From the NCBI GenBank assembly GCA_947591215.1, contig CANQCZ010000005.1, positions 1,630 to 65,629 of the forward strand: a DNA stretch of 64,000 nt. The letters run 5' to 3'. The DNA is from an uncultured Bacilli bacterium. Lineage in GTDB: Bacteria > Bacillota_I > Bacilli_A > RFN20 > CAG-449. Of the stretch, positions 57,304-62,433 are shown piece by piece (positions within the stretch are counted from its first letter, which is position 1; each line of letters begins with the position of its first letter). Under the pieces are notes generated by a model that worked only from the letters and a program-made list of their open reading frames with translations, was not told where the DNA came from and searched no databases. Position numbers and translations under genes: made by a program.

Positions 57304-58446
57304 GTGAAATATTGCCTACAATTAAATGAAGATGATTGCGGATTTTGTTGCCTTAAAAATCTGCTTTATCGATTAAGTCACGATAAGCGTTATCTTAGAT
57401 TATCGCAGGATTTAAAAAAAGGAGCTTATTCTTTTTTGGATCTTGTGACTCTATCAAAAAGTGAGGGTCTAGAATTAGAAGGCTATGAAGCAACCATCAA
57501 CGATTTACAAAAAAACGACATCGCATTAATTAAAGTTCAAAAAACGACACATTATATTTTGATCTTAAAATTAAGCAAGCGTAAAGTCACTTATTTTGAC
57601 CCGAAATACGGAATATTGAAAAATGATCTTGTATGGTTAAAAGAGCGATATTTAAACAGATTTTTAAGAGAAACAAATTATCATAAACAATTAAAGTTTG
57701 AAGAACGTCCGTATCATTTTAACTATTATATCTGCGTCTTGTTGTATTTGGAATTGATGGTTTTGATGAGCGCTTTGATTTATAGTGAACAAACAGTCGC
57801 CTTTATAGTTCACCTATTTTTTATTTTGAGTTTAGAGTTATTAAAAAGGTGTCTCTTAAAAAAAGAGATGAAACGAATCGATCAAACGATTATTACACCC
57901 TTTATTGAAAAGGTTGAAATTTCTAAAAGAGTCGACTTGATTTCATTGAAGAGTAACCTTATTAAAGAACGGTTAAAAAAACATTATGGCATCATCACGT
58001 TTATGGCTTTGACTTTCATTTTAATTATCAATGATTTAATGTATCTCGTTTTCCTTTTTATGTTTTTGACTTGGAGTTTAGTCTATTTTCATTTGATGAA
58101 ACGGATCAATCATGAAAAAATCGCTTTAAGTGAACTTGAAACACAGTTTTATCGAGATGTAGCTATCTTAAATGGTTATTTAAAAGCAACGGAAATCGCC
58201 GATAAAATCGAACGCAAGATGTTTGTTTACAATGGATTAAAATATCTCATCATTTTTTGTTTAACTTTAATCTATGCCTTTATTAAAAATAATCTGACGT
58301 TGAATTTCATCTTATTCAATTTTGGAATCTTCGCTTTTTTTATTGAAAACGCCAATTCTTTACTTATAAGTTTTGATAATGAGCATCAACTATTTCAAAG
58401 CGAAGCTCTTATCAATTCTTTTATTAAAACTTACCACAATATCTAG
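57304..58446 (+). CDS. C39-peptidase-domain polytopic membrane protein (no ABC ATPase domain)
   Basis: Q-x4-DCG (LQLNEDDCGFCCL), HYILIL and FDP match the Gln/Cys/His/Asp of C39 peptidases. Multiple C-terminal TM segments follow. Confidence 0.5.
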   Translation: MKYCLQLNEDDCGFCCLKNLLYRLSHDKRYLRLSQDLKKGAYSFLDLVTLSKSEGLELEGYEATINDLQKNDIALIKVQKTTHYILILKLSKRKVTYFDPKYGILKNDLVWLKERYLNRFLRETNYHKQLKFEERPYHFNYYICVLLYLELMVLMSALIYSEQTVAFIVHLFFILSLELLKRCLLKKEMKRIDQTIITPFIEKVEISKRVDLISLKSNLIKERLKKHYGIITFMALTFILIINDLMYLVFLFMFLTWSLVYFHLMKRINHEKIALSELETQFYRDVAILNGYLKATEIADKIERKMFVYNGLKYLIIFCLTLIYAFIKNNLTLNFILFNFGIFAFFIENANSLLISFDNEHQLFQSEALINSFIKTYHNI

Positions 58447-58476: not shown

Positions 58477-58893
58477 TTGCCGATGAATTTGTTATTTTTT
58501 TTGACGATGAAAAAAGATAGTGCTTATCTTTACGATGACGATACTTTAAGACAGACGCTTGAAAAAATGGACTATCATCGTTATTCGGTGTTACCAATCA
58601 TCACTCATGAAGGAGAATTTGTCGGAACTGTCTCCGAAGGTGATATTCTTAAATACATCAAAGATCAGGGACGCTTTTCGCTTCAAAAGGCCGAACAAAT
58701 CCATTTGATGGACATTGCCCGTTATCGTGAATACAAAGCGATTTCAATCAATTCCGAAATTGAAGATTTGGTGATTATGTCGCTTGATCAAAACTTCATT
58801 CCGATTGTCGATGATCGTAACATCTATATGGGAATGGTAAAGAGGCGCGCTATTATCGAATATTTTTATAAAAAAGCGATGAGCAATACATAA
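58477..58893 (+). CDS. CBS-domain protein
   Basis: CBS-pair pattern (VLPIITHEGEFVGTVSEGDIL and FIPIVDDRNIYMGMV). Confidence 0.7.
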   Translation: MPMNLLFFLTMKKDSAYLYDDDTLRQTLEKMDYHRYSVLPIITHEGEFVGTVSEGDILKYIKDQGRFSLQKAEQIHLMDIARYREYKAISINSEIEDLVIMSLDQNFIPIVDDRNIYMGMVKRRAIIEYFYKKAMSNT

Positions 58894-58987
58894 AGACGTA
58901 AAAATTCAAAAAATTTTTGAATAATTTTCTCCAAAATTATCTTTTTAAGTAATTTTATGCTATAATAACTGAGCAAAGAAACAAATT

Positions 58988-59929
58988 ATGAATGATATAA
59001 TAGATAAATTAATAAATAAGTTAAACAATGCAGAAATAAACATTTACTTGGTTAAGTTTAATGCAAAAAGCGAAAAAAATAACAATGCAGTATTGTTGCC
59101 AGGTGATATTAATGCTGCATTGATAAAAGATTATGAGCGATATTTACATGAATTTATTGATACAGAAACAAAAACTTATAATCCTAATGGAAATAGCAAT
59201 GATGTTTTGCCTCAGTTAATGTTATGTGCAATAGAAAAAAGATGGAAATTTATTTACAACGCGATTAACAAAACCGGTAATCTATCACAAAAAGATGTCG
59301 ATGCTTTAAATAATCAAGAAAAATTATCATATAACAATGGAGAGTTAAACTTATATGTTACAGAGATTAAAGACACAAGAGATAATAAATATTGCTATTT
59401 TGTGTCTAAATATCAAAATATTCAAAAAGTTTTAAAATTTAAAAAACTTTTTTTAGAAGAAAATGGTCAACTTAAGGAAAAGGAATCAAGGAAGGCTTTA
59501 ATTATAAATTGGAATGTGGATGTAATTATTTTGGATGATTATGTGTATCTTTTAAACGAAACTGAATTTAATAGTATTTTTAATTATGATGAAAACTTAA
59601 AAGAAATTGCCATGAAAACTGCGAAAGAACACATATCAAAATGGAAAATTTTTTATAGTAATGAAAAATTTTGCAATTTGCTCAATTACAAATACGGCTA
59701 TAGAGGTATTGCAAAAATTAGCGAAGATAATCACTATTTAACTGCTATTGAATCGTTTGATCCAAAAACTTTAAAATCTCGTATTTTAGAAAAATGCGGT
59801 GATGTTTTTAGCGAGGAAGATTTTAAAGATGATTTATTAAATGTAACAAAAAACAATGGTAAGAAGATTATTAATCTAATTTCGAAAGAATTGAAATACA
59901 ATATATTTGAAGATAAGGCAGAAAAATGA
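58988..59929 (+). CDS. Hypothetical soluble protein in the AT-rich islet
   Basis: 313 aa, very AT-rich. Its stop overlaps the downstream start (ATGA). Confidence 0.4.
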   Translation: MNDIIDKLINKLNNAEINIYLVKFNAKSEKNNNAVLLPGDINAALIKDYERYLHEFIDTETKTYNPNGNSNDVLPQLMLCAIEKRWKFIYNAINKTGNLSQKDVDALNNQEKLSYNNGELNLYVTEIKDTRDNKYCYFVSKYQNIQKVLKFKKLFLEENGQLKEKESRKALIINWNVDVIILDDYVYLLNETEFNSIFNYDENLKEIAMKTAKEHISKWKIFYSNEKFCNLLNYKYGYRGIAKISEDNHYLTAIESFDPKTLKSRILEKCGDVFSEEDFKDDLLNVTKNNGKKIINLISKELKYNIFEDKAEK

Positions 59930-60522
59930 AAAATATGATATATAAGGTTTTTTATTATTTAATGGCAGTTTGTTTTATGAATATTATATTCTTGATAAGA
60001 ATGTTCCCAAAATATATACTGAATCTTGAATATAGTATGGACATATGTTCTTGGGTCTGTTTTGGGCTAGTGGTTGCCTTAACATTAATTGGAATTATCG
60101 CATCAATTTTAATTGCTGCTACACCTTTAAAATTCAAGAAGAATACTCATGGTATTGAATTTAAAATAACTGATTTCAAAAACCAAACTGGCGAACAATA
60201 CTTTACTTACTTTTCTTTATTGGTTCTCACAGCATTTGCAATACCATATACGCAAATACTTTTTGATGTAATATTCATATTTTTGATACATACATTATTG
60301 TGTTTTATTTATATACAAGAAAATTTATTCTATATTAACCCGGTACTCATTTTGTTGAAATATAGGATATATGAATGTAAATGTATCAATGTAAAAACTA
60401 ATGATCCGAAATCAATTTATGTGTTTGCTAAAAATATACAATTAGAAATAAATAGGATTTTAAAATTAAAATCGTTAAATACAGACATAATAAGAATTAA
60501 AGAGAAAAAGACGACTAAATAA
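59926..60522 (+). CDS. Hypothetical 4-TM membrane protein, translationally coupled to the upstream gene
   Basis: Four hydrophobic segments. ATGA overlap with 58988-59929. Confidence 0.4.
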   Translation: MKNMIYKVFYYLMAVCFMNIIFLIRMFPKYILNLEYSMDICSWVCFGLVVALTLIGIIASILIAATPLKFKKNTHGIEFKITDFKNQTGEQYFTYFSLLVLTAFAIPYTQILFDVIFIFLIHTLLCFIYIQENLFYINPVLILLKYRIYECKCINVKTNDPKSIYVFAKNIQLEINRILKLKSLNTDIIRIKEKKTTK

Positions 60523-60702
60523 GCCGTCTTTTTTGTTATTGTGCACTTGCTCCTTTCTTATTGCACCAGTTTTTTGGCCCAAATTTTGGGAGCAAGTGCA
60601 TTGCAATTGGTCAATCGAGCAGATTTGAACTGCTGACCTATCGCTTAGGAGCAATCAAAAGGCTGTTTTTTTGCTTTTCAAAGAGTAAGCGAGGTATTTT
60701 TA

Positions 60703-62433
60703 TCAGTTATGATTGTTTTTTTGGGACAACAATCTTTTGTTCCTTGATGATACATGTCTTTTTACGATTTGATAGATAAAGAAAGTCAAAATAATGCCGG
60801 CGGAAACACCGAGAATCACATAATAAGGAACCATATTGGTGTAGGCACGAATTTGACCCCACATGATGACGACGTCATTGTTGGCATCTTCAAAATCGTT
60901 CATCACAGCGCATCGAGCGATCGTCTCTTCATCGGGATACTGAGTCATCAATCCATTTTGAGATTCTTGTAAAGGATAGATGATTCCGTTGCGCTCGGGG
61001 CTTATATGTCCTTCAAATAAGAACTTTAAGTCGTAAGGTTCTTCAAAGACATATTCTTCAGGATCGACTTCTTCAAAGTATTCTTCATCGGTCGGAAGAT
61101 GATTTATCGAATCCTTGATACAAACGTAAAATTTATCATCGTAATGAACTAAGGTCGGATCGACTTCGATTTCATTACCATCTTCGTCGACGTCAACTGA
61201 ATCGTAATATTCGCGTCCTTCAAAATAATCGGCACAACCATACCAATCAGAAGCCATGTTGAAAACTTCTTCACTGGTAATAAACGGAGTATAACCGGTA
61301 TAATCCATATTTTGCGAAGCGTTGTAAGGATCGGAGATAAAATCGACAAAGGCGCAAGCGAGTTCTTTATCGCAACCTTTTGGAAAAACCCAGCCATCGT
61401 ACCAAATGTTGCTACCTTCTTCCGGAACGTAATATTCAAGAACTTTTTCTTGTTGTTCCATCGCCACGTCAATCGAATATACCGCATCTCCCGACCACGC
61501 TAAATTCATCTTGATTTTACCGGTGACGATATCGTTTTTTCCTGAATCAACTTCAAATCCGAAGATGTTCTTTTTAAGTTCAATCAATTCGTGATTGACG
61601 ACATCGATAATATCTTCATAGTTTTCTTCGGTGATCACTAAATCAAGGATTCCTTGGACGACTTCGTTGTATTCAGCTCTTAAAGTATCGATTTCTTCTT
61701 GACTCGAGGCATTTTTAAGTTTATTTAAATACTCTTCTCGAGCCGGGTTTAAAATATCTTCAGTATTTGAAAAGTCGCTTCCGCTATAAGCGTGGATTAA
61801 TCCGACCGTAAACGTATCGCGCATCGAATTTTTAATCGAAATCAAATTACGATAAGTCGGATCCCAAAAAACATCCCATGATTTGACATCTTCCTTGATG
61901 GTATCGCTGCAATAAGGATCGTAAATGATACCTAAAGTTCCCCACATATAGCCGGCCGCGTAAGAATCTAACGAAGTGTCCTTAATGCCGTCGTTATCGG
62001 TATCCGCGAACATCGACTTTAATTTACCGCGGACGATATTGGAAGCGTAAGTATCATAAATAGGGCATTCTTTAGCGATATCGACGGATTCTAAAAGTCC
62101 TTCGCGAATCATTCTTTGAATCATATAATCTGAAGTGCAGACCAAATCGTATGTTCCTTCGGGTTGTAAGGTAAATTGATTGTACATCGTTTCATTGGTG
62201 TCGAAAGTATAGTAATTTACTTTCGCGCCGGTTTCTTCTTCAAAAGCGTCGATTAAATCTTCATTGATATAGTCAAAGCTATTGTAGATTGTTAAAGTTT
62301 TGCCACTATAATCCGCTTGATCAAGATGTTGTTTTACATGCAAAGTATTTTTCAAAGAAGCAGAAGGAACATTCACCCCTGAAGCAAGTGCGGTAACAAA
62401 GAGCGAGATTAATAGCATCAATGATTGTTTCAT
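60703..62433 (-). CDS. potD: Spermidine/putrescine ABC transporter substrate-binding protein (extended, 576 aa)
   Basis: N-terminal signal peptide and a PotD-like core with acidic insertions. Upstream of potC and potB. Confidence 0.7.
   Translation of the reverse strand: MKQSLMLLISLFVTALASGVNVPSASLKNTLHVKQHLDQADYSGKTLTIYNSFDYINEDLIDAFEEETGAKVNYYTFDTNETMYNQFTLQPEGTYDLVCTSDYMIQRMIREGLLESVDIAKECPIYDTYASNIVRGKLKSMFADTDNDGIKDTSLDSYAAGYMWGTLGIIYDPYCSDTIKEDVKSWDVFWDPTYRNLISIKNSMRDTFTVGLIHAYSGSDFSNTEDILNPAREEYLNKLKNASSQEEIDTLRAEYNEVVQGILDLVITEENYEDIIDVVNHELIELKKNIFGFEVDSGKNDIVTGKIKMNLAWSGDAVYSIDVAMEQQEKVLEYYVPEEGSNIWYDGWVFPKGCDKELACAFVDFISDPYNASQNMDYTGYTPFITSEEVFNMASDWYGCADYFEGREYYDSVDVDEDGNEIEVDPTLVHYDDKFYVCIKDSINHLPTDEEYFEEVDPEEYVFEEPYDLKFLFEGHISPERNGIIYPLQESQNGLMTQYPDEETIARCAVMNDFEDANNDVVIMWGQIRAYTNMVPYYVILGVSAGIILTFFIYQIVKRHVSSRNKRLLSQKNNHN

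Follow-up and report, generated by a model that had tools for sequence, protein, structure and literature searches.

The locus described here lies in a 64-kb window (the whole stretch of DNA that was analysed). Between a CBS-domain gene, cbs, and a potD-like solute-binding gene there is a small islet with two adjoining and co-oriented ORFs, named kwaB and kwaA after the protein families to which they are assigned below (Table 1). The two genes are arranged as one operon, and the same layout is found in all related loci. Their ORFs share the sequence ATGA at positions 59926-59929 (a 4-nt overlap), by which we infer that kwaA is translationally coupled to kwaB. A previous reading of the window, made without database searches (the sequence-only reading), had reported both the overlapping ORFs, whose coordinates were verified, and a drop in GC content from about 40% to about 26%. 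The drop is real, with a GC content of 0.26 over positions 58912-60690 (kwaB 0.249, kwaA 0.246), but its starting level on the left side is ~32-37% rather than 40%. The GC content is 0.33 for the window on average, 0.32 for the left flank and 0.39 for the right flank. GC3 is similarly low in the islet genes (kwaB 0.21, kwaA 0.24) compared to 0.31-0.39 in the adjacent genes.

Table 1. Annotated features of the kwaBA islet and its neighbours (window coordinates)
Feature	Position	Strand	Remarks
cbs (CBS-domain gene)	58477/58507..58893	+	left neighbour of islet
19-bp palindrome ATTCAAAAAATTTTTGAAT	58904-58922	.	9-nt arms, one central base
Left junction	58908..58913	.	A-run; empty-site homology stops at 58911, donor-type homology starts at 58910
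Tyrosine-integrase remnant	58910..58924	+	last four codons + stop, AAA ATT TTT GAA TAA (K-I-F-E-stop), AAAATTTTTGAATAA
Putative extended -10 element	58958..58966	+	TGcTATAAT; kwaBA promoter; direct sequence reading
kwaB	58988..59929	+	313 aa, soluble, DUF4868/KwaB domain
kwaA	59926..60522	+	198 aa, four transmembrane helices + cytoplasmic beta-strand domain
Bidirectional intrinsic terminator	60504..60534	.	fold -10.4 kcal/mol, z = -3.85; listed in minus-strand scan
Window-specific hairpin insert	60542..60603	.	62 nt; absent from L105, L005 and L007
Truncated tRNA-Arg(CCT)	60608..60651	-	3' 44 nt: anticodon loop, variable loop, T arm, 3' acceptor strand, CCA
45-nt segment	60652..60696	.	between tRNA fragment and right junction
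potD-like solute-binding gene	60703..62433	-	right neighbour, convergent

The TTTATGYTATAAT block at the putative -10 element is kept in five related loci (L005, L006, L007, L008 and L105). No good -35 element accompanies it, and a simple promoter scan did not list the 58958-58966 site. The ribosome-binding site of kwaB is degenerate (AAAGAAAC vs. AAGGAG or AAAGGAG in relatives). Downstream, the terminator at 60504-60534 is common to L005, L007 and L105. This terminator closes kwaA on the plus strand and is the sole terminator-like site found by consensus scan downstream of potD on the minus strand in this strain. Expression of kwaBA would then depend on one extended -10 promoter, ATGA translational coupling and one bidirectional terminator.

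Both proteins are assigned to Kiwa families. KwaB has the conserved domain PF16162 (DUF4868; 39.6 bits vs. a gathering score of 26.3, residues 122-274) and is matched by three PADLOC KwaB models (5.5e-9, 4e-8 and 1e-4) that cover residues 4-252. KwaA is matched by ten PADLOC KwaA models (best match: 3.8e-14), which places it in the KwaA sequence family. Identical public proteins carry precomputed assignments to PF16162 (KwaB) and PF28043 (KwaA). A profile built from homologues of KwaA reaches the KwaA structure 9mrg in the PDB (E = 3.8e-4, residues 4-170). The match of KwaA to the NCBIfam equivalog NF041622 is under the cut-off (42.4 bits vs. 100), and so the protein can be classified as a member of a divergent subfamily and not as an equivalog of the E. 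coli protein. KwaB has no match in the NCBIfam search, and no KwaB in the PDB was reached by sequence-profile searches with two subfamily KwaB alignments. Because of these profile and NCBIfam results, the pair is considered to be a divergent Kiwa.

The AF2 model of KwaA (pLDDT 68.5) has four helices (residues 2-31, 40-65, 89-105 and 111-131), a strand at 77-87 in the intracellular loop that joins helices 2 and 3, and four strands towards the C-terminus across residues 146-192. Three regions are hydrophobic by hydropathy analysis (4-32, 36-70 and 95-135); the third is long enough for the two adjoining helices of the model. In a Foldseek search, the KwaA model is most similar to 9mrx_A (TM 0.68, E = 1.2e-6); the top seven matches are all KwaA proteins and the next has an E-value of 0.7. 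Solved KwaB combines a Rossmann-like domain at the N-terminus with a DUF4868 domain at the C-terminus. The model of KwaB is weak (mean pLDDT 58.5), with residues 205-300 alone being confident. Its top five Foldseek matches are all solved KwaB proteins (E-values 4e-6 to 3e-4, probability 1.0, full-length; next E = 0.7), with TM-scores of just 0.30-0.35 and a pLDDT of <50 in the N-terminal half of the model. The sequence-only reading had likened the pair to Kiwa-type two-gene systems, suggested a check against the DUF4868/KwaB family and described the second protein as a 4-TM membrane partner. All of this is borne out by Pfam (above the PF16162 gathering score) and PADLOC for KwaB, by PADLOC, profile and Foldseek evidence for KwaA and by the four helices of the KwaA model.

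An exhaustive HMMER search recovered only 62 cluster representatives at E-values of 1e-3 or below. A metagenome scan added one locus only, a tblastn search of plasmids with KwaB gave no match, no relative was found in a scan of viral contigs, and an additional alignment-based word-index search for homologues yielded nothing further.

Species-representative genomes were scanned with PotD, which led to two rabbit-gut MAGs labelled "uncultured Bacilli" whose PotD proteins are 99-100% identical to that of the window: L010 (Lapin-012 bin92) and L020 (Lapin-002 bin95). In both of these genomes cbs lies directly beside potD and Kiwa is absent. Blastn against either one gives identical break points (58911/58912 and 60696/60697) and 94-98% nucleotide identity in the flanks, such that 1785 bp of the window (58912-60696) stand in place of 447 bp in L010 and 209 bp in L020. 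By direct reading, the native cbs-potD spacer contains terminator-like hairpins belonging to both genes. In L010 the spacer also holds an ORF for a truncated RelB antitoxin (3e-8 to Pfam RelB, covering positions 24-81 of the 82 in the profile), and in L020 more of this ORF is deleted. The cbs-potD spot is therefore a variable one, a small hotspot. Four or five other, independent assemblies share the Kiwa-bearing arrangement, with identical proteins. Beyond the close genomes the cbs-potD synteny is lost, and searches for identical CBS and PotD proteins recovered the same strain alone.

By this genome comparison, the kwaBA operon is proven to be a strain-specific acquisition between cbs and potD in a rabbit-gut Bacilli species. 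The sequence-only reading had proposed an insertion between core genes and a comparison of the cbs-potD interval among relatives; the two near-identical Kiwa-free genomes, with their shared break points, confirm the former and supply the latter. A housekeeping role for the pair was also considered and is ruled out by the empty sites and by the different neighbours in every related lineage. At the base-pair level, the empty sites prove that strains of this uncultured gut Bacilli species are polymorphic for the defence operon.

At the left junction, blastn homology between the window and L010/L020 ends at 58911, whereas homology to L005/L105 begins at 58910. At the right junction, homology to L010/L020 resumes at 60697. 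The palindrome at the left end had been taken as a flank of the islet. It does exist, one base away from the position first given, but it occurs at chance level: three such palindromes are observed in the window vs. 3.0 expected from Markov simulations, and its fold is not significant (z-score -0.9). Its left arm is native sequence downstream of cbs (present in L020 and with one mismatch in L010), and its right arm is the tail of an integrase gene from the incoming DNA. Because donor homology starts with that tail at 58910, the palindrome straddles the junction. Read against these alignments, it arose by accident at the junction and is no boundary signal of an element. A role as a terminator or operator was rejected on the same grounds (chance frequency, insignificant fold and division by the junction).

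The 12-bp inverted repeat that had been noted on the right side is real and is part of the hairpin insert. It forms 12 Watson-Crick pairs (60542-60553 with 60589-60600), or 14 pairs when G-U pairs are included. The hairpin has a free energy of -29 kcal/mol (z = -4.8) and does not recur in the window. The 4-nt sequence ATTG is directly repeated, once just 5' of the insert (60538-60541) and once as the last four bases of the insert (60600-60603).

The likely source of the islet can be read from related loci. The closest relative, L105, shows 87% amino-acid identity and 91% nucleotide identity over positions 58910-60541. Its gene order is a frameshifted tyrosine-integrase remnant, kwaB, kwaA, the same terminator and a complete tRNA-Arg(CCT) on the opposite strand. 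L005 (77%) and L007 (72%) carry the same type of module, with an integrase, kwaB, kwaA and a convergent tRNA-Arg(CCT). The integrase ORF is open in both (complete in L007, running to the contig end in L005), and both integrases have the Pfam domain Phage_integrase (5e-19 and 4e-19, respectively). In the window, the last 15 nt of this ORF are all that remain of the integrase gene. This 15-mer (58910-58924) is identical to L105 positions 295-309 and corresponds to the end of the L005 and L007 integrase ORFs.

The other end of the module is also preserved in part. A complete tRNA-Arg(CCT) gene follows kwaA in L005, L007 and L105, and the window retains the 3' 44 nt of this gene at the corresponding place. 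The "tRNA-T-arm-like segment" of the sequence-only reading is therefore real. The fragment is 92% identical to the complete tRNA of L105, as given by a 52-nt alignment to that locus. It begins with the anticodon loop (CUCCUAA) and stops exactly at CTTAGGAG, the reverse complement of that loop. ARAGORN called no tRNA in the window, and Rfam searches at permissive thresholds returned chance-level matches only (the best being MicX, E = 0.06, far under the gathering score), because the gene is truncated; the fragment was recognised solely through comparison with related loci. Further copies of the octamer, as (T)ACTTAGGAG, are found 170-350 nt past the tRNA in L105, in L007 and, as two copies, in L005. 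Their presence suggests an att core at the anticodon loop in islands of the L105/L005/L007 type. In the window, the first 8 nt of the segment beyond the tRNA fragment (CAATCAAA) resemble the sequence after the second CTTAGGAG copy in L105. The junction CTTAGGAG/CAATCAAA matches L105 2208-2223 at 15 of 16 positions, a resemblance that is not significant alone (E = 0.18).

The window element does not have direct att repeats at both ends with one in an intact tRNA gene. A second copy of CTTAGGAG is absent from the 64-kb window, no further att-like copy of this part of the tRNA was found in the 8 kb examined of L007, and there is no tRNA gene at the target in the empty sites L010 and L020. As the window lacks the integrase, a second att copy and a tRNA target, the cassette is a stranded fragment, and with only four integrase codons and the tRNA 3' 44 nt left it is now immobile on its own. 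Its entry probably occurred via illegitimate or homology-facilitated recombination, rather than site-specific integration. In this way the locus shows how part of a tRNA-Arg integrative island, here a defence cassette, can be left behind where there is no att site. Overall, the islet is very probably a two-gene Kiwa anti-phage operon of a Bacillota-type subfamily, with kwaB before kwaA, that represents a stranded piece of an integrase/tRNA-Arg island.

The mode of action of the pair can be modelled on E. coli Kiwa (strain O55:H7 RM12579 and ECOR strains; structures 9mrg, 9mrr, 9mrx, 9mtn and 9nyu; Zhang, Todeschini et al., PMC11785009). In that system, KwaA tetramers in the membrane hold KwaB dimers, and activation follows when phage attachment, DNA ejection or conjugation disturbs the membrane (PMC11785009). 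KwaB binds incoming DNA via DUF4868 and stalls replication and late transcription, and infected cells stay viable at an MOI of 10 (PMC11785009). The model proposed by analogy, in which a mechanism characterised in a Gram-negative host is applied to an uncultured lineage of Bacilli, has the following steps. KwaA, with its four helices and cytoplasmic beta-barrel, would tetramerise in the membrane and hold KwaB dimers. Phage adsorption, DNA ejection or conjugation would disturb the membrane, and KwaB would be released or activated. The DUF4868 domain of KwaB would then bind the incoming DNA, such that replication and late transcription are blocked, and the host cell would be expected to survive.

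The state of the two genes bears on whether such a system could still operate. Both kwaB and kwaA are full length and without frameshift, and all subfamily-invariant residues are kept in the window proteins. As estimated from related loci, the two genes are shown to be under purifying selection (dN/dS for both: 0.11-0.14 vs. L005/L007 and 0.35 vs. L105). The higher of these values could mean relaxed constraint, and the operon might then be a decaying relic, i.e., Kiwa by descent that is no longer expressed or protective and was stranded after integrase loss. The change of the kwaB ribosome-binding site from AAGGAG/AAAGGAG to AAAGAAAC, the want of a good -35 element, the integrase gene that is frameshifted in L105 and deleted in the window, and the truncation of the adjoining tRNA would all fit with decay. 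However, a raised dN/dS on a short branch is expected even without loss of function, the -10 element and terminator are conserved, and several independent assemblies carry identical copies. Together with the intact ORFs and their retained invariant residues, these observations make a relic distinctly unlikely, and the reading as a Kiwa operon is preferred.

Two further explanations concern what the cassette does and whether it moves. Abortive-infection systems often combine a soluble protein with a small polytopic membrane protein, and a truncated RelB antitoxin gene occupies the corresponding spot in the sister genome L010, so that the pair might be an abortive-infection or toxin-antitoxin-like module whose membrane protein kills the infected cell. 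This is very improbable given that both proteins fall in Kiwa families and that neither PADLOC nor Pfam has a better-scoring Abi or toxin model for them. The abortive-infection label of the sequence-only reading is also a misfit in that the protection given by E. coli Kiwa does not kill the infected cell (PMC11785009); survival of the cell is incompatible with abortive infection. It is scarcely credible, in turn, that the cassette is still mobile, with an integrase encoded elsewhere acting on the CTTAGGAG core at 60644-60651 to move kwaBA. The exact truncation of the tRNA at the anticodon-loop octamer, the recurrence of that octamer as (T)ACTTAGGAG in L105, L005 and L007, and the L105-like junction CTTAGGAG/CAATCAAA would be in keeping with mobility, but the octamer occurs in a single copy in the 64-kb window, the match of the junction is of the insignificant quality given above, and the empty sites contain no target tRNA gene. 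Moreover, the left junction lies inside the integrase 3' end and is without a repeat, showing at most a short A-run microhomology. An immobile Kiwa cassette thus remains the preferred interpretation.

The sequence-only reading had stated that the gene order is reversed relative to kwaA-kwaB. This holds when the window is compared with annotated kwaA-then-kwaB operons in Emticicia and Salmonella plasmid records. The canonical order with kwaA upstream is not found here; order is a descriptive property and was not required by PADLOC for a call in S. thermophilus. Within the subfamily, kwaB is first at every locus in which both genes are readable, from 87% down to 26% identity (L105, L005, L007, L089-L095, L096, L097/L099 and L100). 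Judged from these loci, kwaB-first is the normal arrangement in this Kiwa subfamily, and it has already been published (PMC11514479).

Elsewhere the pair is found beside a serine recombinase or within type I R-M operons, a sign of its mobility; in the R-M operons, distant KwaB-subfamily members lie between hsdM and hsdS/hsdR. It is conceivable, though unlikely, that the Bacillota kwaB-kwaA lineage is a functionally distinct branch of Kiwa that differs in effector action, envelope-adapted sensing or R-M cooperation. Two observations prompt the idea: KwaB is too diverged for a sequence match to the solved E. coli KwaB, and subfamily members are recurrently nested between hsdM and hsdS/hsdR or joined to recombinase-bearing islands. 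If the lineage is distinct, the window pair would be a minimal stand-alone representative suited to testing. To our knowledge, structural and mechanistic work on Kiwa to date has dealt with Gram-negative kwaA-first systems only. At 1.6 kb, its own putative promoter and terminator included, the pair is in any case a compact member of a little-studied kwaB-first Kiwa subfamily.

Compared to E. coli Kiwa, the window pair has the same two-gene composition, with a KwaA of ~195-200 aa and a KwaB of ~313-315 aa with a C-terminal DUF4868. In its predicted fold, KwaA shares with its E. coli counterpart four transmembrane helices and a beta-barrel made up of the intracellular loop and the C-terminus (TM 0.68). 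In both cases the genes lie side by side in one orientation and are horizontally mobile. Unlike the E. coli system, the window pair has kwaB before kwaA, an aligned identity of only ~14-15% and a low-GC uncultured Bacilli lineage as host. A second parallel is the Kiwa system of S. thermophilus 90730, listed as "(kwaB, kwaA)" 0688, 0689 (St90730_0688/0689; 673224-674776, forward strand), which gives 4-5 logs of protection against lactococcal phages (PMC11514479). Compared by description, it is likewise kwaB-first and of similar size (1553 bp there vs. 1535 bp here), its host is also a member of the Bacillota, and it too sits in a variable region, one of defence genes. That region is a CRISPR-associated island, whereas the window pair is in the cbs-potD spacer.

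The relatives of the cassette resemble tRNA-targeting integrative islands, with an integrase, kwaBA cargo, tRNA-Arg(CCT) and nearby octamer copies in L005, L007 and L105, and the window keeps the 3' part of the tRNA starting at the anticodon loop. Unlike such islands, the window element has lost its integrase, has one att-like copy and occupies a non-tRNA site; it is a fragment of an island and no island itself. Defence genes can also be nested in type I R-M operons, an example being PrrC in the prr locus. The distant KwaB-subfamily members between hsdM and hsdS/hsdR are similarly placed, but the window copy is without R-M neighbours.

As PADLOC and Pfam already recognise the pair, general knowledge of Kiwa is unchanged. 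The added value of the locus lies in the exact empty-site evidence, in its being traced to an integrase/tRNA-Arg island and in the account of its small repeats. Set beside these known systems, the window pair belongs to a known defence family and has a gene order that is already published, and it is a clear but ordinary example of its kind.

The spacer between cbs and potD, which holds the kwaB-kwaA Kiwa pair in the window, is a recurrently used landing place for accessory genes. In L010, one of two near-identical rabbit-gut genomes whose spacer is empty of Kiwa, it contains a truncated RelB/DinJ-type antitoxin ORF (L010 9838-10065; Pfam RelB 3e-8) from which the N-terminal 23 positions of the RelB profile are absent. 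The second such genome, L020, has the same ORF in a more deleted form. The start of the CBS gene to the left of the pair (window 58477-58893) is ambiguous: public gene calls give a protein of 128 or 136 aa, the ORF listing of the window gives 138 aa from a TTG start, and that of L010 gives 171 aa. Between this gene and a YqfD-like sporulation gene lies a gene (window 57304-58446) for a 380-aa protein that has a C39 peptidase domain at its N terminus (4e-15) and is hydrophobic in its C-terminal part. No ABC ATPase domain was detected in this protein, which is kept in both L010 and L020.

The closest related Kiwa loci (L105, L005 and L007) carry additional copies of (T)ACTTAGGAG, the anticodon-loop octamer of tRNA-Arg(CCT), upstream of that tRNA gene. 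As one of the L005 copies runs on into a degenerate 5' half of tRNA-Arg, these copies suggest either that elements have integrated repeatedly at the anticodon loop or that the islands bring their own replacement tRNA. The integrase gene adjoining the pair in L105, the closest relative (L105 1-309), is already a pseudogene, a frameshifting deletion having taken out the '...ARAGHSKAS...' segment that is kept in L005 and L007; the integrase therefore decayed before it was lost completely in the window.

In the window, a 62-nt insert (60542-60603) with a 12-bp perfect inverted repeat (-29 kcal/mol) separates the kwaA terminator from the tRNA fragment. The sequence ATTG precedes it (60538-60541) and recurs as its final 4 bases (60600-60603). 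The insert is not found in L105, L005 or L007, and neither the window nor any of the loci compared contains a second copy. This hairpin could be a miniature palindromic insertion.

Coordinates of octamer copies and of distant KwaB-subfamily loci
Feature	Locus	Coordinates	Remark
(T)ACTTAGGAG copies	L005	2467-2520 and 2640	
(T)ACTTAGGAG copies	L007	9762	
(T)ACTTAGGAG copies	L105	2208	
R-M operon or DpnII/MboI setting	L096	2910-6502	
R-M operon or DpnII/MboI setting	L097	2020-5625	
R-M operon or DpnII/MboI setting	L100	2303-8945	
R-M operon or DpnII/MboI setting	L101	2162-4608	kwaB only, up to contig end

A kwaA gene is also annotated on small mobilisable enterobacterial plasmids (L103, E. coli Nissle 1917 pMUT2, and similar 5-kb plasmids), where the replication-initiator gene ends within an overlap with it. 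The stretch up to the record end has no annotated kwaB.

Among distant members of the KwaB subfamily (23-40% identity), kwaB-kwaA lies inside type I R-M operons, as in the order hsdM-kwaB-kwaA-hsdS-...-hsdR, or adjoins a DpnII/MboI enzyme. A literature search found no report of linkage between Kiwa and type I R-M. In the 57%-identity clade (L089-L095, e.g. L089 4601-11028), the first 4 nt of a gene for a large serine recombinase overlap with kwaA. Genes for an MmeI/Eco57I-type methyltransferase, an HTH protein and an AAA_14/DUF4143 ATPase lie 5' of the pair, and this neighbourhood looks like a mobile defence island.
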